DNA of 64,000 nucleotides from Okamejei kenojei (lineage: Eukaryota): NCBI GenBank assembly GCA_035221665.1, contig CM069144.1, positions 34,596,001-34,660,000 on the forward strand, in the 5' to 3' direction. The notes under the pieces are model-generated. The model searched no databases. It was not told where the DNA came from and worked only from the letters and a program-made list of their open reading frames with translations. Within the stretch, counting starts at the first letter, position 1. Every line of letters begins with the position of its first letter. Made by a program: the position numbers and the translations under genes. Below are positions 3,749 through 49,977 of the stretch, piece by piece.

Positions 3749-3877
<129 letters not shown>

Positions 3878-5102: not shown

Positions 5103-5567
<465 letters not shown>

Positions 5568-6954: not shown

Positions 6955-7310
6955 ACATAGACGTGATTTAATCCCTGGGCGGCTCGCCATAGATATCATC
7001 CCTGGGAGACTCACTATAGACATGGCTTCATATATGAACGCTCACCATAGACATGGCTTCATCTCTGGCAGACATGTCATGGATATGGCTTCTTCTCCGG
7101 AAGGCTCACCATGGGCATGACATAATCTCTGGGAGGCATGCCATAGACATGGTTTCATCTGTTGTAGGCATGGCTTCATCTCTAGAAGGCTTACCATAGA
7201 CATGGCTTCATATCTAGGAGGCCCACCACTGAGATGGTGTCATCTCTGGGATGCTCACCATAGACATGGCACCTCTTTTACCCTGCCACAGATGTGGCTT
7301 CAATTCTGGG
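6955..7310. repeat. Degenerate ~32-bp minisatellite (~10 units)
   Basis: Recurring unit ctcaccatagacatggcttcatctctgggagg. Confidence 0.85.
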
Positions 7311-7653: not shown

Positions 7654-7797
<144 letters not shown>

Positions 7798-11420: not shown

Positions 11421-14400
11421 TCTCTTTGCTGATGTTAGTGGTAATTAGCTAGATTTGATGTGAGCTGCTTTTCCTCGTTGTGCAGAAAACTGCTGTAACC
11501 ATAAAATATTAAAAATGCGAAATTTCTCTCAGAATATATATTAATCAATGTACGTCATCTTTTCTAAGGTTTGTCGTATTTGCGGTCTCAATTCACTATC
11601 AATGAATGACAAAGGAAATCTTACATTTCAGTTGTAATTTTAACATCCCTTTCCGAACAGTGCGTTTTCCAAACCATGAAGAATATGAATGCACTACACT
11701 CGAGCTGGTTCTTCAAATTCTGCTTAAAGCAAGTTGTTGGAATCTTTAGTTCCTTGCACTTACCCAGGCATTTATATTGCTTTCAAGTGCTTTATGGAAG
11801 AGCATACAGTGAGAACTTCAGCCGAAGAAATTTGCAAGCTCATATGGCCTGAAGGACAAGGTTTGATTCGGAACATTACTCTATGGGCCATGAGCCAGAA
11901 GGACAAGTTCAGACCTATTGAAGACTGTACCAGCCAACTGATGTCGTCCACCTATTAGTTGATACTATTTCAAAATTAAATTTTCTAATTAGTTTAATTA
12001 TATAATTTGAGTTAAATTACATGACTGCTACAAATTTTGTTTAAGATTGTCAACCAGCTTATTTTTTAACTTAAGTAGCTGTTGGGAATTTCTTCAGGAC
12101 CAGAGATGAAGCTGAATGATTTCTTACACTTTCTCCTCATGCTGCCCCCCCCCACCCCCCGCAACCGCACGTTAGGGGAACAGACACAACGGGTCTGCAC
12201 TTGGTCTAGTGTACTTTAAAACTGATCTTTCCCACAAATTGCAGATTCAGCCATTAACCAATGATACTTATTAAAATCTAGTCTCGATTGTGATTTCAGC
12301 TTCACACTAATGACTTTATTCGACTAATAGCAAGGAAGATGCAATTTAGACCTTTATCTTTGCAGTAAATGTTTTTTTTATACTTATTCATGTTCCAAGA
12401 TCTGGACAACACTTGTAAACACTTGCCTTCATGGCACATTATCAGTCTTGAGTTCCATAGTGTGATAGGCTATTTCATGGTCATTTAAGAATGAACCACG
12501 TTGGTGGGTATGGCAAGACCATTAGATGGGATGTTTTAAGACTTTCAGGGATTTTATGGTTATTTTCTAAATTTGAGATTATTAACAGTTGAAATCAATG
12601 GTATAGATTTGAGTGTAATCAATGACAAAGATGATAAACTGGCTAATGATACTAAAGAAAGCTGACCAATGTAGACAGCTGTAAGTGGGATCAATGATAG
12701 GGTCAAACTTTTACATGAAATATGTTCTTGCTCATTCACATTTTATGAGGCAATTTCAATGTTTTCCATTTTTGAAAGAGCTTTGACCTGGAATTCATAC
12801 TGATCCCAGCAGTTTTTAATAATAATAATATATTTTATTGTCATTACACATAAGTGCAACGAGATTTGGTTTGTAACTAGCATTGTGTAGCTTTTACATC
12901 CCCATTACTGATTTGGGCATTCGTGGGCTTTTTATGCGAAGATATACAGTTCCTGATTTGCATGAATGCCCGTTTTAGGTTTCCCTTGTAGTACGATCCC
13001 TTTGGCATTTGAAAGAGCAGGTAGAAATGTAAATTAGGATTTGAAATTCTTCAAATTTCTCCTTCCACAGCCTTCAGTTGTGGAAGGAGAAATTCTCATG
13101 TAGTGTAGTGAGTTCTGGGCAGATTTGGGTTTTAGGGACGTCTCATGAATTGAGAAATAATACATCTTGCAATGTGAACAAAAAAAAATCAAAGTATTTT
13201 TACTACAAAATAATATGCTTGGTGATAATATGTAATTGTTTCTGGGCTGCCCATCTTGAATGCTTTGCACCCTTCAAGAGTTAATTGTGTAAATGAATTC
13301 TAAAATATTTTTCCTTTAATGGGATGTTAAATGTACAATATGACTGATACCTCAACAGCTTTACGATAAATCTAATGCTAAATTACCATGGCAGTGATCA
13401 GCATCCTTTGTAAGATCAAGCATTCACAGAATTACCAGTTTTCTTCAAGGAGAAGCAGTTAGAAGTCTCCATAGCTCAGTGAGGCATTTGTTCTTGATGC
13501 TCTGCAACGCTGGTTGGTATCCTTTCTTTGTTAAAATTCCTATTTCTATTTCTGCTCACCGCCCAGGTTAGAGATTGCAATCAAATTAAAAAGAGATAGA
13601 AGCAGAGCTAAATGCAGAAAGTATACTAGAAATAGCATGATTTCCAAAAGGCTGTCATGGTTAATCAATGGTTATATATTTTTTGAAGAAGTAACAGAAG
13701 CAGAAGACAAATGCACTAGACCCTTGATGTATTTTCAGAAGACTTTTGATAGCATACCCATAATAAACTCTTGTCAAAGACCGACGTAAGTAGAAATAGG
13801 ACAATGAGTGAATTAATGCCAATTAGCTGAGGGTATAAAGCTGTGGATAGATACAAATTATAGTTTTCAGATTGGAGGTACGTTGAAAAATACGTTGGCC
13901 ATTTAAGGAGGCGATGAGGTATATTTTTCAGTGCATCATGAGTTTTTGTAAGTCTCCTTGATGGAAGCAGTGTTTTTCAATATTTTTAAGACACATAGAT
14001 GTTGGAGGCAGTTGGTTACTGTGGTAAATGGGAATGTGGAGTTGAGGTTTTTGCAAAGTTATACAGGGTCTTGTTAAATGGCAAAGTAGGCTTAAGTGGA
14101 GTAACTACTCTGGCTTCTAACTTGTATGTACTTATACATTGTAAGTTGTATGTACTTGTAAGTTCCTTACATTTTTCATTGGGGCAATTACCAAATGTTC
14201 ACATTAATGCTAAACTAGAATGGGTAGATTACAATGCAGATAATACAGAACAAAAATACTGCCTTTAAGAACTGCATCTTAAAATTAATATAGGGGAGTT
14301 AAGTTGCAGATAAACTTTTAGCATTGAAATATTGTCAGGAAAATTGAAAACACGTATTTACAGCTTGGACAATAAACAATGTCAGAACACAAGTGAATAA

Positions 14401-14754: not shown

Positions 14755-16779
14755 AAGGATGAAGAAACACTGGAGAAAGTACGAAAGTATTGACAGATAA
14801 AAGTGGAGCTGTGATTTCATCTCTTGGAAAGTAACGAAAAGGTTTAGGCAAAATCTAAAAGGCCATTTAAAATTACGTGGTGGGAATCAAAAACTGAGCT
14901 CATGGATGCCTTCAGTATGCTTCAGCAAGCGTCGAATTCTGGTAGGACAAAAAGAGTAAATGGCAGGAGTGTTGATGTACACAGGGACTTCGGGCTTGAA
15001 CGAGTTGGCAGTATGGATGGTAAAAGCAGATACAGCCACAATGTTTAAAATACATTTGGGATGGCACTTAAATATGAATGGCATTAAAAGATCTGGGCTA
15101 TTTCATGCAAATGCGATTCACTGAGAAAGGCATGATGGGCAGCACAAATGAGATTGACCAAAAAGCCCAGTTTCTGTGATGGATGATTATGAATTTGCAC
15201 CCTCGGATTACAATGATCAGTGAAAAACATTCCACGTTTAAACAAATATAAATTAATACAATGGTCTGCACGAAATGTGGGTATCAGATCCTCATTTGGT
15301 GCAATAGACCAGAGGGAAATAATAAATATTTTCTAAGTTTAGAAAGAAATTGACTATCATAATTTGCTTAAGGCAAATATAAAGGAAAACTGAATAGGGC
15401 CTAGTCTATACGATTAAAAAGCTGAGATGATAGAATGGAAGATTGTATTGGGTTTGGCAAGAAAACTGGAATGGATTTTAAATTGTTTCTACTGGTTGGA
15501 GTAAATAGTTTGGTTTAATGCTGCCTATAAATTGGCATATTCTGTGAACCTAGTTCAGATTATACATACAGTGCTTTCTCTTAATTGTTTCTATTTTTTT
15601 TTTGCACGTCCAGCTTTTTATGTATGATTTTTTTGTTTTACTCTTTTTACTGTTTTGCACGACAAGGCTCTCTTTGTAGCTTTGTAGGAGGCTCATGCTT
15701 GAAGGACTAAGAGACCTAGAAACATTTCAGCCAGTTTACTTGATCCACTAATTTCTCTGTCTTAGTTGAGTATACGCAAGATGTGACTGATTTAGCACGT
15801 AAACTGTTTGACTCCCAAATGTATCGGTTGCCTACCCCATCCCAATGTTAATGTGCTGCAAAGACAATCTGTTGCTGCAGAAAACCAAATCACACCTCAA
15901 CATTCCAGTGACTGAATGGTTCACAACCCCAGTCTGTGCAGATCATTATATTAAGTTGTGCTTGGAATGTATTTCACTGATCATTGTACTCCGAGGTTGT
16001 AAATTGAAGATATCAGTGAGCTCCGCTAATGTCAGACTTGTGAATCGTAGGCTGAAGTTTTACTCCAGAGCTTACAAAGCCACAGCAGCAAGATGTATGT
16101 GATGTAATTGCAAATTGTTGTGAGTTGTGTGCTGATGTGGGTATACCACATGCTGGAATTGGATTTGGATTAGAGGAAGAGCGTGTTCATAATTGTATGT
16201 GGGCTCACTTTAATTGGTACACCATCAAGCAACCTATCACCAGATATTGTCATAGACTATCTGTTGAATAATTGATTAACAGTATGTTTTAGTTTGGGGC
16301 CGAGAAGTCCATGTGCATTCAGCTCACCCATCTAGATTCTAGAGCATTTTCTTTGGTGTATTCGGAATAATTCTAATTGTCATCTGCTGACTAGAAACTA
16401 TTGAGTGCCATCCTTTATAGTTTTATGTTCTACCAGCTGCATTGATAACCTTTGAAAGAAAGATTTGCTGATACTCTAAAATAAAAGTGACTACATATTT
16501 CTAGTAGAAATATCCTTCCATGTTTCTGGATTTCTAAAACAAATGAAATGCATTCCCTATTCAGCAAATTGTCTGTTAGTGGTTTTACTGGTGTTTGAAG
16601 GAAGTGTAACAGCAACTGTTGCTTGATGAATTTAAATTATTAGGTTGTGAGACATGATATACCAATATGCAAAAGCAACATGCAAAACAAAAGAGAGTGC
16701 ATATTGTAGCATTGGTGATAACATTTGCTGGGTTTGGACATTTGAAATGAGCCCCTGAATTTAAAAAAGTGTTGTCGTA

Positions 16780-17530
16780 CGATAAAGTTTGAAGGTGAGA
16801 CCAAGTAGAATGGGCCCTTCAGCTCACAATGTCTGCCGAACATAATGCCAAAATCATCTCATATTAAACTCCACATTATCCATATCATTCCATTCCCTAC
16901 ATATCCATCTACCTATAAAAAAAGTCTCTTAAATGCCACTTTCGTATTTGCCTCAACCACCAACCCGAGCAGCGGGTTTCATCATTCGCCACCCTCTGCA
17001 AAAATAAAAGTTGCCCTGCACGTCTCCTTTAAAGTTTGCCCCTCTCAGCAGAAAGCTTGGCGCTCGAGTATTTGACTTTTCCAACCTGAGAAAGGGTTCT
17101 GACTGTCTACTCAATCTATGCCTCTCATAATTTTATATACTTCTATCAGGACTTCCTGTATCCTCCAGCTTTCCAGAGAAAATCAAAATCTGTCCACTCT
17201 TCCTGTAACTGATCCAGGCATTATTCTGGCAAACTAGACTGCACACAATGCTTCAATTGGGGCCTAACCAAAGCTGTATTGTGACTTCCTGACTCATACT
17301 TGATGCCCTATGAAAGCAAGCGTACAATATCCCTTCATTACCACTCTGTCTACTTGTGTTCCCACTTTGAGAGATTTATGGATTTGGTCCCCTAGATCCC
17401 TCTGTCCATCGATGTTGTTAAGGATCATTCCATAAGTGTATATTTTCCGCTCGTATTTGACCTTCCAAGTGCAACACCTCACACTTGCTCAATTTAAACT
17501 CCATCTGTCAATTTTCTACCCATTCCAGCA
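16780..17530 (-). mobile_element. CR1 LINE 3' fragment (degraded)
   Basis: Minus-strand translation QRDLGDQIHKSLKVGTQVDRVVMKGYCTLAFI is typical of the CR1 ORF2 C-terminus. Confidence 0.7.
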
Positions 17531-17540
17531 TTGCTAGTGA

Positions 17541-17798
17541 CTTAGTTAAATTACAGTTCACGGGCATTCTTTGTGCCAGTGCAGCCATGCCCGAATAGTT
17601 CCAACTAAATCAAGGGCATGAGATGGGAGAAATAAGATGAAAAGTGTGCTTTGTGTAAGTATTAAAAAATCCGTGCCACTTCATGCATAAATCTGACTAA
17701 ATAAGACTTGGCACAAATATCTGTTCTATTTTTCAGTGTATTGGAGGAAAGGTCACGTTGAAGAAAAAATAAATGCGGCCTTTGTATTATCACTGGAA
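17541..17798. other. Copy 1 of a diverged tandem-duplicated non-coding element
   Basis: Collinear with 18116-18368; shares identical 22-, 27- and 18-nt blocks. Confidence 0.85.
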
Positions 17799-18115
17799 GT
17801 AACTCTTACGTTTTCCTGCATTCTTTCTGGCTCAGCACATTCTCATTCTCACTTGCCTGCCTGCCTGCCTGCTTGCTTGACTTTGCCTACCCTTATTTGT
17901 GCATTCCCTCTTCTGATTGCTGCAATTCTGTGAGGATGGACACGCGCGCGCGTGCTTGCGCGCACACACTCACACTAGCACTTACTTGCTTTTGGCCACC
18001 TGTTTGAAGATTGGTGGAAGTATTTCTTGGGCAGCGAACTCTCAAGGTTTAAATGGCAGCGTGTGAATATTGAACTTGCATTTCAGGTTCAGTAGTGACC
18101 ATTAGCTTGTATTTC

Positions 18116-18368
18116 CTTAGTTAAATTATGGTTTAAGCCTTTTTGTCAGTGTAGCCAAGCCCCAACAAGTCCAACTACATCATGGGTGTGTAATGGGAGA
18201 AAGAAGAGGAACAGTGTGCTTTGTACGACTGTTTATAGAACCATGCCACTTCATGCATAAATCTGTGTGACTGGAAAACGTGGCACAAATATCTGTTCTA
18301 TTTTTCAATATTGGAGGGAACGCCATATTATATGAATTTTGAATACGGCCTTTGTATTATCACAGGAA
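18116..18368. other. Copy 2 of a diverged tandem-duplicated non-coding element
   Basis: Collinear with 17541-17798. Confidence 0.85.
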
Positions 18369-21276
18369 CATCACATTTAAATCCAGCTAATTGAGGAAGG
18401 GTTATTTTAACTCAACAGCTGTCAATAATCTTGTGATAGTTTTGTTCAGTTGTTCAGCATACACTGCATCTTTAATATCAGCTACACTACATTTCAATAA
18501 AGGTTAACATTGGAAATGATATATGCATTCAAGTGTATGTGCACATATCTTTAGCCATAGATGTCAATATCATATCTCTGAAGTGATTTTATTATTTCAC
18601 GCTTTGCTTGAATCCTTTAAGCCAATTGGTTAACGGTATTACATTTCAAATTAGCAATTGACCTAGCAAATCTTTACATTCCAGAAAGTACAACCTTAGT
18701 TTATGTATTCTCTCCATATTGGGTAACCCTCTGAATCCTGGTTTCATTATCTAAAATTTATGCTGCGCTTCTTCCTCAGACAATATTTCCTTCCTCAGAT
18801 TGAAACACAAAATTAGGAGTTGATTGTTCTATTCCTCTTGCCTGTTTTGTCACAATTTCTGCACTGTCCACATTCATTGATTCTCATAACACCTAAAAGT
18901 TCTGCCATGAATATACTCAGTGACAGATCCTTCTCAGTCTTCTAGGGCAGGAAATTTCAAAAGATTCACAAGACTGCATGAAGGAATTTCTTCTCATCTG
19001 TTTCCTGAATGGTTGGCCCTTTATTTGTGATCGACCTTCGCTCCTTGACATTGCAGCCAGGAGAAATGTTAACTCTGGATTTACCCTGCCAAGTCCTTAC
19101 AGTTGCGATTAAAACTTATTTCATTATTCCAGCTGATTCAACTGGAGTTTTCCATAGCTGCCATCTAACTTTTATTTCTTTGTAGTTCATATAAAGGTCA
19201 GCATTACATTTGTCTTTTTGTACCTGTCCATGAGACTCTGTATGTGACCACATTGTAGTCACATTGGATCTGTTCTAGTGTGTATCACCACAGAAAATAT
19301 TCTTATCTTCTCAGCTCAAAGTGGATTACCTCCACTTTGTCCACGTTGAAATCTGCCAAAATGTTAACACTTACCAGGTATTAATATATTTTTGTAATGT
19401 AATGCTTTTCAAATGCAGCGTTTGCAATATATTTTTGTGTTATCCTCAGACTTGGATGTGTTTCTTTCTATCTCAGTCACATCTCAGTATAATGAATTTC
19501 CCCAACACATATCCTGGACCCAATAGGTGGCTTGCGGATTTGACACTGGCTCATCATCCCTATCTGTCCCTGGCTGTTCAGCCAATTTCTTGGTGAGATC
19601 TACAAATTTTCTTCAAACCCAACAGCCTCTTGAGGGTTTTCATCAAATGACTTGTGGAAACCCATCCAGACAATGTCCATAGATATTCCTCTGTTCATTA
19701 CTTCTTCCATTTCATCAGGCCTTGTCTACCCAGTATAATGTCGTCTTGCTCTGTTTGATCACCTGGAGCTTTTTGTTTCCACTTGTTTCCATTATGACTC
19801 AAGTAATTTCTTGACAACTATTAGGCTAACTAATTCTCTGCTCATCCATAATCATCTCATCTTTCTTAAATACGTGCACAGCTTTCCAATCAGTTGGCAG
19901 ATCATGACAGCTTTGGTATATTATGGCAAATGCATTTGTAAATGCCTCGTGCTTCCTTTAAAACACTTGGGTGGAATCAATCTATTTACGATATGATATA
20001 ATAGAACTTTATTTATCCCAGGAGGGAAATTGATCTGCCAACAGTCATAAAAAAAACACAAAATACATGAAACATGAAATTTGGGGGGGGGGGGGGGGGG
20101 GGGGGGGGAGAGTCTCAGTCTACCCCATGATAGAAAGGGGAGGAGGTTTGCTACTTTTTATTTCATGAATCCTAATTTACCTGTGCTTGTTCTGTTCGGT
20201 GTGCTTTTAGTTTGATGATGTCCCTTTTAAATATGCATAATTACACTTTAGGATATTAACTAGTTCCGTATTACAGCAGGTTCTTCTATAAATAGTCTGC
20301 TCCATATGAGTTGTGGTATCCAATGCCATAATTATCAAGTTTATCATGATATGTATGCTTCAGTGGATACTTGTTCAGCCTTCTGAAAACTGCAGCTGTA
20401 GCCACTGATTCACATTTCTTCCAGTATAAAGAATATATATAACAAATTAATCTGAGATGGTTTCAATTCTAGAAATGTGTACATCAGTGTGATATATGCA
20501 CAAAAATGAGAGATATGTTATTGTAATTCCATAGTATTGCTGAACAAATAAGGCTGTCAAGAACAGACAGCCGATATAGCCTATTTCCCATTCTGTGGAG
20601 AAAATGTAACACATGAAATAGTAGTTAATAATGTGTATTACATTTTCTCCTCACATGTATTCTACACTGCAATTTACAATATTTCAGCATTATCCACAGA
20701 TGAGTAATAGGAAAGTCATGCAAGATATCCTTGACATATGTATATACAGGGGACGAATTGTGAATATAATCAGGTCAAATTTTCTTCCCATCTCAATTAC
20801 AGCAATCCATTTTTGTTCAGTATACATCAAATTCGCCAGAGAATAATTTTCAGAAATAATCTGCGTTTTGTCATGGACGAGAGATTGATCCATTTACTAA
20901 TTAAACCATCCTTGGAGTTCTTTTGCAGAGAATCACTTAATTGTCACTTTTGTAATCCTTTCAAGGACAATGTGAAATGGATATCACCAAATCCATTTCT
21001 TTAATTTGTTTACCCACTGAATGGCAAATTGTATGAATTGGGTTTCTTAAAGATTTATTTAAATCTAAATTCAAGATTTGACTAAACTGATTTTTGCATG
21101 TTGCACAATTGCCCCTTATCCTTCAGTTGGGAAAGTGCAAAGCAAGATTGTCCTTCATTACAGTCATTACAGTCTAGTCACTTATGGAAGTGTTCTAGAA
21201 TGTTGTTTTAGATATTGATGGGTGCTTGATGTTTGACACAGACATGGAGGGTCGAAGAGCTTGCTTTTGAGCTGGA

Positions 21277-26629: not shown

Positions 26630-27487
26630 CAATGCCCTCCTTAATGTTTGGGACAAAGACCCATCATTTATTTATTTGCCTCGGTAGTCCACAATTTGGG
26701 ATTGTGGAGTATTGGCCTGTATTGCAGCCACCTTTAGCTTATGCTTGTTTTGGGGCTAGACCCCTTCAATTTATCTTCAGCATATAAAAGGCTGAAGATA
26801 AATTGGGTTCAGATCAGGTGATTGACTTGGCCACTTGAGAATTAACCGTTTTTTAGCTTTGAAAAACTCCTTTGTTGCTTTAGTAGAATGTTCGGGATCA
26901 TTGGCTTGCTGTAGAATGAACCGCCGGCCAATGAGTTTTGAGGCATTTGTTTGAGCTTGAGCAGATAGGATGTGTCAATACACTTAAGAATTCATTATGC
27001 TACTACCATCAGCAGTTGTATCATCATTGAAGATGTGAGTCAGTACCTTCAGCAGCCATACGTGCCCAGGCCATAACACCCCCACCACCGTGTTTCACAG
27101 ATGAGGTGGTATGTTTAGGCGTTTGGGCGGTTCCTTCTCTCCTCCATACTTTGCTCTTGCCATCACTCTGATATAAGTTAATCTTTGTCTCATCTGTCCA
27201 CAAGACATTTTTCCAGAAATGTGGTTGCTCTTTTAAGAACTTCCTGGCAAACTTGGCCATCCTATTTTTCTGGCTAACCAGTCATTTGCATCTTCTAGTG
27301 TAGCCTCTGTATTTCTGTTCATGACGTCTTCTGCGGACAGTGGTCATTGACAAATCCACACCTGACTCCTGAAGAGTGTTCCTGATCTGTTGGACAGATG
27401 TTTGGGGATTTTTCTTTATTATAGAGAAAATTTGTCTGTCATCAGCTGTGGAGGTCTTCCTTGGCCTGCCAGTCCCTTTGCTCACCA

Positions 27488-27540
<53 letters not shown>

Positions 27541-27988
27541 CTCTCGCTCTCTCTCGCTCTCGTAATGACATTCCAAACTGTTGATTTTGGTAAGGCTAAG
27601 GTTTGGTTGATGTCTCTTAACCGTTTTATTCTTGTTTCTCAGTCTCATAATGGTTTCTTTGACTTTCATTGGCACAACTTTGGTCCTCATGTTGATAAAC
27701 AGCAATACAACTTTCCAAAGTTAAACACACCTGAACAATTACAAACGCCTGTGAAGATATGTGTCCCAAACATTATGGTGCCCTGAAATGGGGGGGACAA
27801 TGTATAAACACAGCTGTCATTTCTACATGGTGAAACCAAAATGTTTAAAAATGGTATTTAATAAAATCTGACAATGTGCACTTTAACCACATGTGATTTT
27901 TTTTTTCTATTACAAACCTCAAATTGTGGAGTACAGAGGCAAATAAATAAATGATGGGTGTTTGTCCCAAACATTATGGAGGGCACTG
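26630..27988 (-). mobile_element. Tc1-like transposon, internally deleted, with a disrupted transposase
   Basis: Termini ca.tgccctcc.taatgtttgggacaaa; TA at right end; translations GTGRPRKTS and WKNVLWTDETKINLYQSDG...VKHGGGGVMAW. Confidence 0.92.
27491..27560. repeat. (CT)n microsatellite inside the Tc1 element
   Basis: Direct inspection. Confidence 0.95.
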
Positions 27989-28211
27989 TAAGATTCTTAT
28001 TCATTTTCCGCTTGTTTTCCACTTTCATCCGGTCCATTTACTAAATTATTTGAATTTCATATACTGGCAAGTGGCATGAATTAATCCAGTTTCAATGGAT
28101 ACGCAGACAGTTGAGGATTTTTCACATAAACTTAATTTTCTTGTGAACCTTGGTGGCAGCTAGTTTTAAAGAGGTGACGTCTTTGACCTGTGTAAACAAG
28201 ACTTTGTGATA

Positions 28212-30216: not shown

Positions 30217-30577
30217 GGTGGTAGCATATTCGTGATTCCTATTGCTCGATATGCCTTGGGCTGGATTTGGGTTTGGGCAATCTTAAAAATACCTACTTTC
30301 ATCCATTCCAAAATAAGAGGCTATTGTGTGCTTTGGCTGTCTTTTGAAGTATGTAATCTTGCTTTTACTTGTCCACATTGACAAACTGTACCTAATTATT
30401 TTCACTGTAAGGCAGTGCTCATGTCTGTAACAGTTCAACTTGGGTTTCCTTAATAAATTACATGTGATGGAACTATTCTCAATTAATTTATGCAAGCCAC
30501 GAAATAGACACGTTCACCCAAACCCAAATCCAGCCCAAGGCACATCGAGCAATAGGAATCACGAATATGCTACCACC
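30217..30577. mobile_element. MITE-like element with 61-bp near-perfect inverted repeats
   Basis: 30217-30277 is the reverse complement of 30517-30577 with 1 mismatch. Confidence 0.75.
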
Positions 30578-31469
30578 CTGTGGAATTCAAGGGTTCACTG
30601 CTCTTGGTCCCAGCTGGAGATTTTCCCATTTACTTTTAAGTTATGAAAGATGCTTTAAATATGTCTTTCACTACCATTCCTTTTCGTTTGTTCCACAAAG
30701 GATATATTTGTAGTTTAATTCTTGTTTATGATTACTGCACATTGTAGATAAAAAATAATAGAACTCATTGCTGCACAGTGGCACAGTAGGTAAATGCACC
30801 ACCAGTTATACGGAGACACAGGAAATTGGAGATGCTGTCATCTTGCGCAAAGCACTAATTGCTGGAGGAGCTCAGCAGGTCAGGCAGCATCAGTGGAGGG
30901 AATGGACAGACAATGTTTCCTGATACTTCTTCAGATGAGTACCGATCTGAAATGCCATCTGTCCATTCCCTCCAGATATGCTGAGCTCCTTCAGCGCTTT
31001 GTATTTTAAGCTACCAGGTATCATTCAAACAGTATTCTATAGATTTTAAGTGTTTGAGCATGTCCTTTCTCGTTAGCCTTATCTCTCTTAATTCACTAAT
31101 GCACTAAACATTGCGTCTGAAATCCTTCCTTGTACACAGATGATTTAATTAAAGATTCAGTCTAAGAAGGTGTGTGGGGATAAAGTAGAATAATTACCTT
31201 AAGTTTTACAAAAGGAAAAACAATTGAATGCTAGAAATATGAAATGTAAATGTTAGAAATGCTGATCAACTGAATTTGCTGGAAAGCTGTTGAGTCTGCA
31301 AGGCTGTTACCAGTCCGAACACGCGATTGACCATCACTGACTGCTTATTTAATGTATATTTAATTTCTATTTCTAAACTTTCTCTTCCTGTTTTTTTAAA
31401 TTAATGTTCCAACTGCTGCTCCCTGTGGTACGGTTCTAAGGTCCTCATGCAATCAACATGGGTGCAGAC

Positions 31470-31760
31470 TTGGACAATGGACAATAGATGCAGGAGTAGG
31501 CCATTCGGCCCTTCGAGCCAGAACCACCATTCAATGTGATCATGGCTGATCATCTCCAATCAGTACCCCATTCTTGCCTTCTCCCCATATCCCCATATCC
31601 CCTGACTCCGCTATCTTTAAGAGCCGTATCTAGCTCTCTCTTGAAAGTATCCAGAGAACCGGCCTCCACTGCCCTCTGAGGCAGAGAATTCCACACTCAC
31701 AACTCTCTGTGAGAAAAAGTGTTTCCTTGTCTCTGTTCTAAATGGCTTGCCCCTTATTCT
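31470..31760 (-). mobile_element. CR1 LINE 3' end fragment
   Basis: Same family as 21277-21515. Confidence 0.8.
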
Positions 31761-32514
31761 TGCTTCTACTGGGTTACCAGGCTATACTCAGTACCGAGAT
31801 TTTTAAAGAAAATTCAATAATTCGCAGAATATATTTTTCTATTTGTTTTCAATATACTTTTGTTTTTGATACATTTTCTCTGCTGATCCAATGATGTATA
31901 CCAAATAAATTGTAGATCAAAAATATTGGAGAAAACAACCTTTCTTAACATTGTGGCAACTTTGGAACTTTGACTTGTATCCTTCAGCTTTTATTGTCTC
32001 TCCGTGTTGTTCGTATTAAAATGTGACATTTTGCACTCTTTTCCGTTAAATTATATCTGCCTCACACTCACCCACTCCAGCAGTTTGCTTATCTGACTTT
32101 TTTTTTATTCTCCACACTCTTTATTTCCAAGTTCCACATCATCTGCTCATTTTGAAGCTATTCTGCATATATTCTGCATATAAAAGTGGTGGTCCACGGG
32201 AAGACCATTGTATCTTCATCAGGTTTGACAAATGATTGTTGAACCATAACTCTGTTTCTTACCACTTACTGTTATATTCCTGCTGGCACTGCACCTTATA
32301 TTTCAGGATATTCAGTTTTGCTGACAGGTCTATTGCATGGTACACTAGCAAATCTTTCTTGGAAGACCAAATGTACATTATCTAGATTAGCTTCATCAAT
32401 CCTTTCTGCTTCTTAACACACAAAAATAAGGTCTGTAGTTGATGGGTTTATCCTTAAATTCTTTTTGCATAAAGATATATTTTCAATGTCTCAACTTTTT
32501 CTCCAGTACCCCTA

Positions 32515-33759
32515 CAGTGCCCTCCATAATGTTTGGGACTGACCTATCATTTATTTATTTGCCTCCACAATTTGACATTTGTAATAGAAAAAAATATATG
32601 TGGTCTTATATGTGGTGCACGTTGTCAGATTTTATTAAATGCCATTTTTATACATTTTGGTTTTCACCATGTAGAAATTATACCCGTGTTTATACATAGT
32701 TCCCCCCCCCCCCCCCATTTCAGGGCACTGTAATGTTTGGGACACATGGCTTCACATGCGTTTGTAATTGCTCAGGTGTGTTTAATTGCCTCCTTAATGC
32801 AGGCATAAGAGAGCTGTCAGCACCTAATCTTAGCTCCAGTCTTTCCATGACCTTTGGAAACTTTTGTTGCTGTTTATCAACATGAGGACCAAAGTTATGC
32901 CAATGAAGTCAAAGAAGCTATTATGATACTGAGAAACTGTTTGAGACATCATACAAATCTAAGACTTGCCAAAATCAACTGTTTGGAACATCATTAAGAA
33001 GAAAGAGTGCACTGGTGAGCTTACTATTTGCAAAGGGACTGGCAGGCCAAGGAAGACCTTCACAGATGTCAGAAGAATTCTCTCTATAATAAAGAAAAAT
33101 CCCCAAACACGTGTCCAAAAGATCAGAAACCCTCTTCAAGAGTCAGGTGTGGATTTGTCAATGATCACTGTCCGCAGAAGACTTCATGAACAGAAATACC
33201 GCGGCTACGCTGCAAGATGCAAACCACTGGTTAGATGGAAAAATAGGATGGCCAGGTTACAATTTGCCAAGAAGTACGTAAAAAGAGCAACCACACTTCT
33301 GGAAAAAGGTCTTGTGGACAGATGAGATGAAGATTAACATATCAGAGTGATGGCAAGAGCAAAGTATGGAGGAGGGAAGAAACTGCCCAAGATCCAAAGC
33401 ATACCACATAATCTGTGAAACATGGTGGTGGGGGTGTTATGGCATGGGAATGTATGGCTGCTGAAGGTACTGGCTCACTTATCTTCATTGATGATATAGC
33501 TGCTGATGGTAGTAACATAATGAATTCTGAAGTGTATAGACACATCCTATCTGCTCAAGTTCAAACAAATGCCACAAAACTCATTGGCTGGCAGTTCATT
33601 CTACAAGAAGACAATGATCCCAAACATACTGCTAAAGCAACAAAGGAGTTTTTCAAAGCTAAAAAATTGTCAATTTTTGGGTGGCCATCAATCACCCAAT
33701 TTGAACCCAATTGAGCATACCTTTTATATGCTGAAGAAAAAACTGAATTGGACTATCGC

Positions 33760-33806
<47 letters not shown>

Positions 33807-34191
33807 ATACAAGCATAAGCTAAAGATGGCAGTAATATAGGCCTAGCAGAGCATTACCAGAGAAGACACCCAGCAACTGGTGATGTCCATGAATCACAGA
33901 CTTGCACGCAAAGGATATGCAACTGAATACTAAACATGACTACTTTCATTTACATTACATTGCTGTGTCCCAAACGTTATGGTGCCCTGAAATGGAGGGG
34001 ACCATGTGTCAACACTGCTGTAATTTCTACATGGTGAAACCAAAATGTGTAAAAATGGCCTTTATTAAAATCTGACAATGTGCACTTTAACCACATTTGA
34101 TTTTTTTTTCTATTACAAATCCCAAAGTGTGGAGTGCAGAGGCAAATAAATAAATGATGTTTCTTTGTCCCAAACATTATAGAGGGCACTG
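32515..34191 (+). mobile_element. Near full-length Tc1 transposon with long inverted termini and a frameshifted DDE transposase
   Basis: TA|cagtgccctccataatgtttgggac...caaacattatagagggcactg; fragments GTGRPRKT, VKHGGGGVMAW, LQEDNDPKHT, SPNLNPIEH; poly-C expansion at ~33761-33804. Confidence 0.95.
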
Positions 34192-37336: not shown

Positions 37337-37492
<156 letters not shown>

Positions 37493-39943: not shown

Positions 39944-41988
39944 GAGAGCTAGGATTTTGCCATAAATGCCATGTACCTTTTCATGCCTTTTTTGATGATT
40001 TCACCAGGTTAATGCCCTTTTCACGATTGAGTGCCTAAATCAGCCTTTTTTTTGCTGCTTTGCTAAAAGGTCGTGCTATTTTCTCTAGTTGTACTGTGAT
40101 TACAATGATGTTTTCTATGTTAACATGCTAATATTAATAGGTTATTATTAACATGTTAACATAGTATAACTTACAAGAAGATTTCCACCACCGGAGCAAA
40201 ACCGGGGGCGCCACCGTCGGTCGTTCAATCGATCGTGCCGCTGCCCGCTGGTTCAGCCTTCTCCAAAATCTATTTAAGAAAGAACTGCAGATGCTTGAAA
40301 AATCGAAGGTAGACAAAAAATGCTGGAGAAACTCAGCGGGTGAGGCAGCATCTATGGAGAGAAGGAATAGTCGACGTTTTCGGTCGAGACCCTTCTTCAG
40401 ACTGATGTGGGGGGGGCAGGAAAAAGAAAGAAAGAGGCTGAGACAGTAGGACTAGAAGGAGAGCCGGGAAGGGTGAGGGGGAGGAGGGAGAAGACAAGGG
40501 CTATCTAAAATTAGATAAGTCAATGTTGGGGTGTAGATTACCCAAGCAAAATACCCAAGCTTGTCTCCTCACTACATTTACTGCTGGCTCCAGTCACAAA
40601 TCTGAGTTTTCGAGTGATCTGTGCAAGGCATTCATTGATGCTGGAATTCCACTGTGGAAATTGGAAAACAAATCTCTCAGAGGTTTTTTAGAGAAATACA
40701 CGGAGGAATATATACCGAGCGAGTCATCATTACGGAAAAATGATGTTGACAGCAACTTCAACATTGTTGTGCAGAAAATTAGAGATGAAGTTGCACGCAA
40801 CAAAATATGGATCGATAGATGAGACAACCAATGCTATGGGGAGATATATTGCCAATGTGGTCATCAGTACACTGGAGGCAGGTCAACCATCAAAGGAGTA
40901 TTTGTTGACATCGGAAGTATTGGAGAAGTCAAACCGCTCCACTATTGCTCACTTGTTTACATCCAGTTGTTTTGGCCAGAAGGTATAAAACACGAGAATG
41001 TTCTTCTCTTTGTGACTGATACAGCTGCCTATATGAAAAAAGCTGCTCATGCTCTTAAAGTTTTATTCCCCAAAATGTTGCATTTGACATGCTTAGCGCA
41101 AGGACTTCATAGAATTGCCAAGCACATATGTAGCTTGTTTCCAAATGTCGATCGCCTAGTTTCCAATGTCAAGAAAATCTTCCTCAAAGCATCGTCACGT
41201 GTGCAGTTGTTCAAGGAAATGGCACCAGAGATTCCGCTACCTCCTCAGCCCATTTTGACTAGATGGGGTACATGGCTTTCTGCTTTACTCTACTATGCTA
41301 CAAATTTTGAAAAGGTTAAAAATAAATAGTCAACTATTTTGAAGAAGAAGAATCTGCTGCAGTCAGGATCGTCGGTGAAATCATGCAGTCCCTCCACCGC
41401 AATCTTGTGTTTACTGCTTCCAATTTTGCAAACTTCCCACAAACTATCACTTCCCTTGGGAAACGTAGCGAAACATTAGTGAATAACTTGCAGGTTTTCA
41501 ACAAAGTAACTGACAATATCCGTAAAATTCCTGGCGATGTAGGTAAAGATATACAAGGAAAATGTGAGAGAGTGATTTTAGCTCACAAAGATCTTGAAGA
41601 AATACAAAACATAGCTGAAGTTCACAAAGGTAGTTGTAACACAAGATATCGACATGAATATAGAGCTGGTAGCTTGTTTCGGGTATGCGCCAGTGATTTC
41701 AGCTGAGGTAGAAATACGTTTTTCACAACTGAAGCATATTCTGTCTGACAGATGGCATAGTTTAACACCAGATTCTTTGAAAAAAATGCTAGTAATTATG
41801 TGCAACCAAGCAACTTTGGTAATTTAATGTAGAATATCTTCATATTATCATTTTTAACCATATTTTGGTGGTGGAAATACATACCTTTTTCTGCCTTTTT
41901 TTGTCAATAAACGCCTTTTTTGTAATTTTATTATGCCTTTTTGCCTGCCTATTTCAGAGTTTTTTAGCCCCTAATCATCCTGGCTCTA
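39944..41988 (+). mobile_element. hAT transposon with a CGGBP1-related transposase pseudogene
   Basis: 8-bp TSD gtgatgac (39936-39943, 41989-41996); imperfect 12-bp TIRs gagagctaggat / atcctggctcta; frameshifted transposase at ~40550-41810 (IPLWKLEN, DETT, VTD, HLTCLAQGLH, LTRWGTW). Confidence 0.85.
40275..40552 (-). mobile_element. Penelope 3' fragment nested in the hAT element, with a hammerhead-like motif at 40370-40404
   Basis: Same family as 51782-52191. Confidence 0.7.
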
Positions 41989-48717: not shown

Positions 48718-49977
48718 CAACTGAAGATTGAGAGAATGGCACAGAAACAGGCTGAACAAGTTCAGCAGCAACAACAAGGACCTTCCATGGCACCACAGAC
48801 TTTTCCAGGACAAGGATTTATTCCACAAGGTCCACAAGCCTTTCAGCAGGCACATCCACCTCAGCAGATGCAGATGAACATGCCTCTAGGACATTCAGGA
48901 CTGCAAGGCAATTTCAGAGCACCAGCACCTCCAGGACAAATGGGTCCTCAAGTACCCCCACTAATGCAGGGGCCTATTGGGTCCCAAGGATTAATGGGAC
49001 CCCAAGCACACGCAGGACCACAAGGAATTCATGGTCCAGGAGGTCACCCTGGACCTCAGGGGCATCCAGGGCCTCAAGGCCACCCCGGACCTCCGGGGCA
49101 CCCAGGCCCTCAAGTTCACCCAGGACCCCCAGGCCACCCTGGCCCACAAGGCCACCCAGGACCACATGCTTCACAGGGGTTTCCAGGTCCCCAAAACCAC
49201 CCTGGGCCACAAGGACAGCAAGGACCCCATGTTCAGCAAGGTTTGGGAGCCCAAGGGCATCCAGGTCCTCAAGGGCATCCTGGTCCTCAAGGGCATCCAG
49301 GTCCTCAAGGACATCCAGGGCCTCAAGGTCATCCAGGTTCACAAGGTCATCCAGGGCCTCAAGGTCATCCAGGGCCTCAAGGACATCCAGGGCCTCAAGG
49401 ACATCCAGGGCCTCAAGGTCATCCAGGGCCTCAAGGTCATCCAGGGCCTCAAGGTCATCCAGGGCCTCAAGGACATCCAGGGCCTCAAGGTCATCCAGGG
49501 CCCCAAGGACATCCAGGGCCTCCAGGTCATCCAGGTTCACAAGGACATCCAGGGCCTCCAGGTCATCCAGCTTCACAAGGTCATCCAGGTTCACAAGGAC
49601 ATCCAGGGCCTCCAGGTCATCCAGCTTCACAAGGACATCCAGGGCCTCAAGGTCATCCAGGTTCACAAGGACATCCAGGGCCCCAAGGACATCCAGGGCC
49701 CCAAGGATTACCTGGGACACAAGGAATGCAAGGGCCATCAGGTCCAAGAGGAATGCAAGGCCCTCCGATGCAGGGACCTCAGCAGGGAATACAAGGACAT
49801 CCCCAGGGAATGCAAGGACCGCAGGGACCCCAAGGGCCAGGATGTGCACCAGGAGGACCACCACATTCTCAGCATGGTGCTTCAAACACACAAGGGCCAC
49901 CTCATCAAACCTCTTCGTTCCAACCGCCAGCCAAGCCATCATTGTTGGGTGATGGACCTAGAATGCCTTTTAACCAG
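48718..49977 (+). CDS. WDR33: WDR33 large exon (~16): Gln/Pro-rich and collagen-like (GPQGHP)n region
   Basis: tgcag|CAACTGAAGATTGAG...TTTAACCAG|gtgagc; 1260 bp; [11 protein letters not shown]...[13 protein letters not shown]. Confidence 0.95.
49040..49710 (+). repeat. Coding 18-bp tandem repeat (gggcctcaaggtcatcca = GPQGHP)
   Basis: Direct inspection; about 35 hexapeptide units, with near-identical copies in 49250-49700. Confidence 0.95.

Follow-up and report, generated by a model that had tools for sequence, protein, structure and literature searches.

Two tandem copies of an old non-coding element with block-wise conservation in a large WDR33 intron of the skate Okamejei kenojei

Why should two neighbouring copies of a stretch of about 255 bp, lying in one intron of a skate gene, have kept long islands identical while the letters between the islands drifted apart? 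We investigated this question in a window of 64,000 nucleotides from Okamejei kenojei (GenBank assembly GCA_035221665.1, contig CM069144.1, positions 34,596,001 to 34,660,000 of the forward strand), in which position 1 is the first letter. About 9.7 kb separate the element from the start of its host intron, which is 29.6 kb long, belongs to WDR33 on the + strand and is the equivalent of human intron 7; this host, already suggested by a first-pass annotation of the same letters, is borne out by the flanking exons. The human intron 7 is over 36 kb long, and in it WDR33 makes use of an alternative acceptor as well as of functional poly(A) sites (PMC11019558). The main features of the locus are the following:

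3749-3844, + strand: WDR33 exon (exon mapping in the window)
from 5103, + strand: WDR33 exon 6 (exon mapping in the window)
7695..7792, + strand: WDR33 exon upstream of the host intron, equivalent of human exon 7 (exon mapping in the window)
17300..17530, no strand assigned: high-copy repeat adjoining copy 1, outside the element (depth table of a related genome)
17541..17798, no strand assigned: copy 1 of the element, decaying (alignment and related genome)
17799..18115, no strand assigned: spacer between the copies, short simple repeats, no significant homology to either flank
18116..18368, no strand assigned: copy 2 of the element, better kept (alignment and related genome)
37365..37491, + strand: WDR33 exon downstream of the host intron (exon mapping in the window)

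Short WDR33 isoforms are annotated in a related skate, Rhinoraja longicauda: the tails of isoforms X2 and X3, which are alternative last exons, correspond to window 12079-12259 and 31440-31803, one short-isoform tail matches 12079-12141 at 95%, and the match at 31440-31803 overlaps an interspersed repeat. Unrelated short-isoform tails are numerous, that is, the intron leaks in most vertebrates. In intron 6, the exon-6 frame continues at 5103-5564 (+ strand) for about 100 mostly hydrophobic residues; the readthrough product has a 96% identical counterpart in Logan protein P0001, falls into the same cluster as a 326-aa entry of Callorhinchus milii, and has similar tails also in mammals, birds, snakes and teleosts. 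The V2-type isoform of WDR33, a STING regulator in human in the accessible text of PMC11019558, appears on the likeness of sequences to be as old as cartilaginous fish. Intron 6 also harbors a 32-bp minisatellite (6996-7277), and an 18-bp tandem array at 48875-49706 (+ strand) encodes the collagen-like proline/glycine repeat of WDR33. A DNA transposon with inverted ends is present in two decayed copies of opposite orientation, at 26630-27990 (- strand) and 32615-34190 (+ strand); we take their ORF fragments to be Tc1-like, and two of these fragments gave no match in Pfam. Broken ORFs at 40442-41824 (+ strand), with a DUF659 match just below the cut-off, are probably a transposase remnant, and inverted arms at 30217-30577 (61 nt, 98%) and 15192-16005 (60 nt, 82%) mark candidate miniature inverted-repeat elements.

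The two copies are collinear with a start-to-start spacing of 570-575, and every identical island quoted in the first-pass annotation was found where it had been placed. They share 197 of 251 ungapped columns in a 260-column alignment (about 78% identity, K2P distance 0.26), and their local alignment score is 211, while 200 shuffles average 21 and reach 29 at most. Identical runs measure 27, 22, 18, 13, 12 and 10 nt; the four longest are clumped beyond what uniform divergence gives (p=0.00025 in 20,000 permutations after trimming of the anchored ends; p=0.0007 if indels are collapsed), while the number of runs of at least 10 nt is by itself not significant (p=0.15). The + strand holds no ORF common to both copies, as had been claimed, the frames being interrupted by indels of 5 nt and 2 nt, and the reading frame of copy 2 has no protein homologue. 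A head-to-tail duplication of the full 575-bp unit was considered and rejected: the scores of the spacer against the flanks were reached by 242/300 and 31/300 shuffles. The spacer is thus unlike either flank, and the homology does not reach beyond the element and perhaps 25 nt on its upstream side. No third copy was found in the 64-kb window. The old duplicated non-coding element is confirmed as a real observation.

The identical blocks, with the words that they carry, are arranged as follows (no strand is assigned to the blocks themselves):

17541-17553 (partner 18116-18128): block 1, 13 nt (alignment); its AG at 17544-45 / 18119-20 resembles a 3' splice site, and its - strand has a TAATT core that we take to be homeodomain-like
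17577-17587 (partner 18147-18157): block 2, 11 nt identical ancestrally (ancestral-column test); in copy 2 its - strand has a 7-nt match to a published U2 antisense probe (18148-18154)
17623-17654 (partner 18193-18224): purine-rich block and 12-nt block (alignment, motif scan); contains H-box-like ANANNA words, and the 12-nt block ends in CTTTGT, presumably an HMG-box-like site
17674-17695 (partner 18244-18265): 22-nt identical block (alignment, motif scan); carries the poly(A)-signal variant CATAAA (17686-91 / 18256-61) and words that we take to be NKX-like, POU-like and PBX/HOX-like
17709-17735 (partner 18281-18307): 27-nt identical block (alignment, motif scan); a presumed NFI-half/ACAAA word is followed by a U-rich stretch, and the - strand has a 9-nt match to the published U2-Cm40 probe (17718-26 / 18290-98)
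17739-17793: 9-nt block, variable hairpin and 18-nt identical block (17776-93; partner 18346-63) (alignment, consensus fold); contains CTTTGT, 8 nt identical to U2 positions 10-17 and, on the - strand, a presumably GATA-like/C-box-like word (17787-93 / 18357-63)

Comparison with a related genome indicates that the blocks have been held by selection. One contig of that genome covers 17390-18569 with 52 differing letters and behaves as DNA; the between-species counts given here are among the differences listed, which number 40 and do not include 31 further ones with less support. Within the copies there are at least 16 substitutions, and at 11 of the 16 sites the related genome has the paralog's letter (8 of these 11 in copy 1), so these changes arose in the lineage of the window. 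Copy 2 differs from the related genome by 5 substitutions and 1 insertion among the differences listed. The long blocks (at least 8 nt) account for 133 of 208 ancestrally identical columns and have received 2 of the 14 between-species substitutions (binomial p=2e-4), a test that omits 2 of the 16 differences located in an indel-ambiguous linker; against the 11.3 substitutions expected at the flank rate of 22/518, these 2 are again too few (Fisher p=0.004), and run thresholds of 10 and 12 nt agree. An initial ortholog test with Fisher p=8e-7 was discarded as biased, because any change in the lineage of this genome automatically turns its column into one where the paralogs differ, and was replaced by the test on ancestrally identical columns. 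The divergence of whole copies is not significantly lower than that of the flanks (copy 1 11/244, p=0.85; copy 2 5/253, p=0.14). Both copies have been under purifying selection since the split from the related fish, as the depletion of changes in the blocks supports; the first-pass annotation had proposed such selection and had named substitutions distributed as in neutral sequence as the contrary outcome, and what we see is the depletion.

The same contig informs on copy number. The depth of the related genome is 24 and flat across both copies and the flanks, with one contig over both copies at 85% likeness and about 88/100 of the run covered, whereas the adjacent upstream repeat reaches about 57,000. 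Therefore, a young high-copy transposable element is unlikely, in agreement with the earlier remark that no such element could be recognised. The history of the two copies differs: 11 nt were deleted just upstream of copy 1 in this genome and 14 nt from 17618 in the related one, the latter removing most of one block. These independent deletions in two lineages show copy 1 in decay, and we infer that it is partly dispensable. By linker divergence, the age of the duplication is very roughly 8 to 11 times that of the split from the relative. Scans of metagenomes returned 0 and 86 matches and scans of viral contigs 0 and 1, with no homologue among them: none of these 87 loci reaches much past the seed, and the best gives 13.9 bits in nhmmer against at least 280 for the copies.

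What, then, do the blocks do? Conserved non-coding elements of large vertebrate introns mostly test as enhancers. By elimination and by this base rate we tentatively favour, at somewhat less than an even chance, an ancient conserved non-coding element of the enhancer type that was duplicated in tandem in WDR33 intron 7. Under this reading the blocks would be clustered transcription-factor sites with constrained spacing. The HMG-box (SOX/TCF-type) words CTTTGT/ACAAA would be the most repeated of them, with GATA-, NKX-, POU- and PBX/HOX-like words between. The two copies may act additively or in partial redundancy, which would leave copy 1 free to erode, and the target would be WDR33 itself or a neighbouring gene beyond the limits of the window, the latter being more typical of such elements. 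The element is non-coding with block constraint (p=2e-4), and its long invariant blocks keep a nearly constant spacing, with no evidence of covariation, coding or splicing. In the related genome its depth is that of a single copy, the window holds no third copy, and it has neither an Rfam family nor a shared ORF nor an annotated isoform tail. The two copies hold 5 occurrences of CTTTGT/ACAAAG (9.8 per kb), where the intron has 38 (1.3 per kb); the word was chosen post hoc and counted in copies that are not independent. One CTTTGT/ACAAA word per copy lies near 17570/18140 with its register shifted.

Several observations fit the enhancer-type reading less well. The motif names were assigned post hoc, the words other than CTTTGT are enriched in the copies weakly or not at all, with no clear enrichment of the GATA and NFI words relative to the intron, and the MEF2-like site of the first-pass annotation lacks, on inspection, the final AG of the consensus. 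The divergence of whole copies does not fall significantly under the flank level. The edges of the homology carry signals of an RNA type: an AG acceptor at the 5' edge, and at the 3' edge an ACA plus 3 nt in copy 2 together with the C-box-like word on the - strand. The + strand consensus fold is slightly better than class shuffles (9/250), and the complementarity to U2 is left unexplained. If the element is an enhancer, two copies that are 20-25% diverged mark the essential bases directly and form a natural experiment, though the class of element is ordinary.

A different role, absent from the first-pass annotation like the U2 pairing discussed below, is suggested by the function of the host gene. 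WDR33 is the subunit that recognises the poly(A) hexamer, so a suboptimal site such as CATAAA would serve only at high 3'-end activity. It could be that the element is a weak poly(A) site of the intron, present in duplicate and perhaps having an acceptor of its own that defines an alternative last exon, which attenuates WDR33 by feedback; we regard this as possible but doubtful. The precedent for such feedback is the conserved intronic poly(A) site in intron 3 of CSTF3 (accessible part of PMC3708835). On the + strand both copies have a branch-like word, a pyrimidine tract and the AG at the 5' edge, the tract being intact in copy 2 and, via an insertion of 11 nt, in copy 1 of two related genomes. 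After this edge come a purine-rich block, the invariant CATAAA, a U/GU-rich 18-mer and a G-rich block. CATAAA is the sole + strand hexamer common to both copies within one mismatch of AATAAA, and in both of them a CA follows 22-24 nt downstream, with a U-rich block behind it. Human WDR33 terminates in intron 7 (PMC11019558, in the part accessible), and the annotated skate short isoforms end in the same intron (window 12079-12259 and 31440).

However, 0 of 105 short-isoform tails (5 shark/skate), taken among the matches listed (e.g. 15 of 310 in one cluster), match the translation from any AG at 17400-18450; a poly(A) site that is used without an acceptor would escape this comparison. The copy-2 frame, as said, is without homologue. 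By our own estimate about 1.4 hexamers within one mismatch are expected by chance in AT-rich conserved sequence, the enrichment of UGUA (7 in the two copies) is about 2-fold and no more, and the 5' splice site of the host intron is ordinary-looking, in contrast to the weak one of CSTF3. Of the 5 runs listed for this locus, 4 were compared with it, and none is on record as RNA. Low-depth contig pieces from 3 presumed-RNA runs of one study, one of them probably DNA, cover both copies and pass the element edges, the candidate acceptor and the candidate cleavage site; they weigh neither way. If the element is an intronic poly(A) unit, a feedback loop of the CSTF3 type extends to WDR33, the hexamer-reading subunit, in cartilaginous fish.

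Two further readings treat the element as an RNA gene. According to the first, the - strand would give a small RNA, about 250 nt long, with three sites of pairing to the 5' region of U2 snRNA; this RNA would be a non-canonical scaRNA-like guide or chaperone, possibly for U2-Cm40. This is unlikely, and that an independently transcribed antisense RNA of this size with degenerate boxes would clamp the first 46 nt of U2 at 10-17, 30-36 and 37-45 as the vertebrate U2-Cm40 guide or chaperone is very unlikely. The - strand of both copies matches the U2-Cm40 probe over 9 nt, and 7 further probe nucleotides are matched in copy 2, as far as the probe is given in the accessible part of PMC8336889; the related genome's copy 1 has the matching letter at 17582. 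The combined 9+7 pattern arose in 39 of 100,000 shuffles and in 0 of 2,254 intron windows, the 9-nt match alone in 1,241 of 100,000 shuffles. An 8-nt match to U2 10-17 was seen by eye against the sequence in the available portion of the PMC6984369 supplement; the text and supplement of that paper do not contain "wdr33". All three U2-complementary segments sit in invariant blocks, a C-box word with one mismatch stands at the 5' edge of the - strand, and the best local stem is found on the - strand (middle stem, 6/500 shuffles). The U2-Cm40 guide of vertebrates appears to be without assignment. The fly Cm40 guide has no known orthologue in the accessible text of PMC5733568, and C40 is absent from the Xenopus/human guide table; MBII-19 is a mouse candidate RNA listed for U2-Cm40 (PMC7960923) and is located in an imprinted cluster (10.1101/430561; PMC13385853), as stated in the accessible parts of these sources. 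If the element gives a U2-pairing RNA, it is a candidate for an unassigned spliceosomal methylation guide.

Against this stands the way in which the complementarity was noticed, namely post hoc: with about 200 comparable snRNA/rRNA windows, we estimate the joint chance at about 0.01-0.1. For C40, the D+5 position leads into UUGU, where the essential A is lacking, and exact CTGA common to both copies is absent from either strand. The box C/D class is accordingly not supported: there is a C box with one mismatch on the - strand and none on the + strand, no exact D box is common to both copies, and the antisense stretch directly before a D/D' box, which should measure at least 10 nt, is a 9-nt U2-Cm40 match that runs into UUGU. 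On inspection the terminal box candidates lack a normal kink-turn, and the H/ACA pocket distances and stems fail. Such an RNA would need a promoter of its own, yet the two copies have unrelated flanks, and it would be antisense to its host. Most shuffles fold better than the - strand consensus (180/250), and of 8 sub-tests the local stem is the one with the best result. Short stretches that looked complementary to rRNA disagreed between the two copies and were set aside.

The second RNA reading, a novel structured intronic RNA on the sense strand, H/ACA-like or unclassified, released either as one RNA per copy or as a single capped sno-lncRNA of 830 nt, is improbable. The + strand consensus fold has -30.0 kcal/mol against -16.9 for the - strand, is multibranched with 3 two-sided changes, and its energy is reached by 9/250 class shuffles; an H-like word lies 14 nt past the first stem, the homology of copy 2 stops 3-4 nt beyond an ACA, and the scaRNA3 copies of Xenopus lie 579 nt apart. 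However, when only variable columns are permuted, 48/250 shuffles reach the fold energy, and covariation is at chance: the 3 compensatory pairs compare with a shuffle mean of 3.0 and are reached in 153/250 shuffles, in a test that rests on two sequences and has little power. Single copies fold like their shuffles (z -0.99 and +1.06 on the + strand, -0.41 and +0.71 on the - strand), and in the 8 local fold tests the + strand 3' hairpin (25/500) stands next to the - strand middle stem already mentioned. In the related genome, read by hand, 3 substitutions fall on predicted pairs and 1 of them breaks its pair, and the 14-nt deletion takes out paired columns of copy 1.

The box H/ACA class, which demands hairpin-H-hairpin-ACA with boxes 14-16 nt from the pocket, likewise does not describe the element: the H-like word fits the first stem, the terminal ACA is present in copy 2 only, copy 1 having ACT, about 150 nt and several helices separate the H word from the ACA, and the minus-strand geometry fails. 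No CAB, Sm or D box is common to both copies, and the window gave no match in Rfam, the best local match being snoR118 with 18.2 bits against a threshold of 44 (E=1.1). Of the stems named in the first-pass annotation, tgcca/tggca (5-6 bp) and, in copy 1, catgccc/gggcatg can form, but on either strand neither copy folds better than its shuffles; the structured intronic RNA pair proposed from them finds no support in covariation or in Rfam. An iron-responsive element, a SECIS, an Sm site and a hammerhead core were rejected by inspection against consensus sequences, the Sm site also by a scan. A scan for tRNA genes found none, and a bacterial promoter scan stayed at chance level and is inapplicable here. 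The GC/AC-rich spacer as a Cajal-body signal was dropped, since it is not common to the copies and varies in relatives.

To all functions beyond those discussed we give a small chance. That the pair is a neutral duplicate or an ordinary transposon fragment is hardly tenable and largely refuted: the substitution rates of whole copies, not significantly under those of the flanks, speak for it, but the runs are clumped (p<0.001), the blocks are depleted of between-species change, the element is still 78% identical where the flanks are unalignable, and the depth in the related genome is that of a single copy.

The favoured enhancer-type reading places the element in a known kind. No published description of it was found in the WDR33 literature, mostly open-access, and the accessible part of PMC8522698 holds nothing on it; most likely it is an element without earlier published description that belongs to a known kind. 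Vertebrate CNEs and duplicated CNEs acting as enhancers resemble it in being about 250 bp long, AT-rich, non-coding and confined to a single locus, and in having linkers that drift between long invariant blocks, within a large housekeeping-gene intron. It differs from them in being a local tandem pair 575 bp apart instead of copies from genome duplication, and in that its conservation is seen in close relatives.

The other known systems share some of these traits and part from the element in others. The CSTF3 intron 3 site (PMC3708835) and the intron-7 sites of human WDR33 V3 (PMC11019558), each as described in the accessible part of its source, also lie in a gene for a 3'-end factor, in an intron of about 30 kb, with a suboptimal hexamer, UGUA upstream and U/GU-rich sequence downstream; here the hexamer is CATAAA and not AUUAAA, is duplicated and shows no sign of use, and the 5' splice site, weak in CSTF3, is not obviously weak in the host intron of WDR33. 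The U2-modifying scaRNAs (SCARNA2, SCARNA9, SCARNA28, SNORD89 and fly scaRNA:MeU2-C41) and the hybrid C/D-H/ACA scaRNAs of 245-330 nt agree with the element in size, in complementarity to the 5' region of U2, in a C-box-like word at one end and in tandem copies. Unlike them, the element is antisense to its host gene, lacks both a valid D/D' box at D+5 and a CAB box common to the copies, and has no Rfam match.
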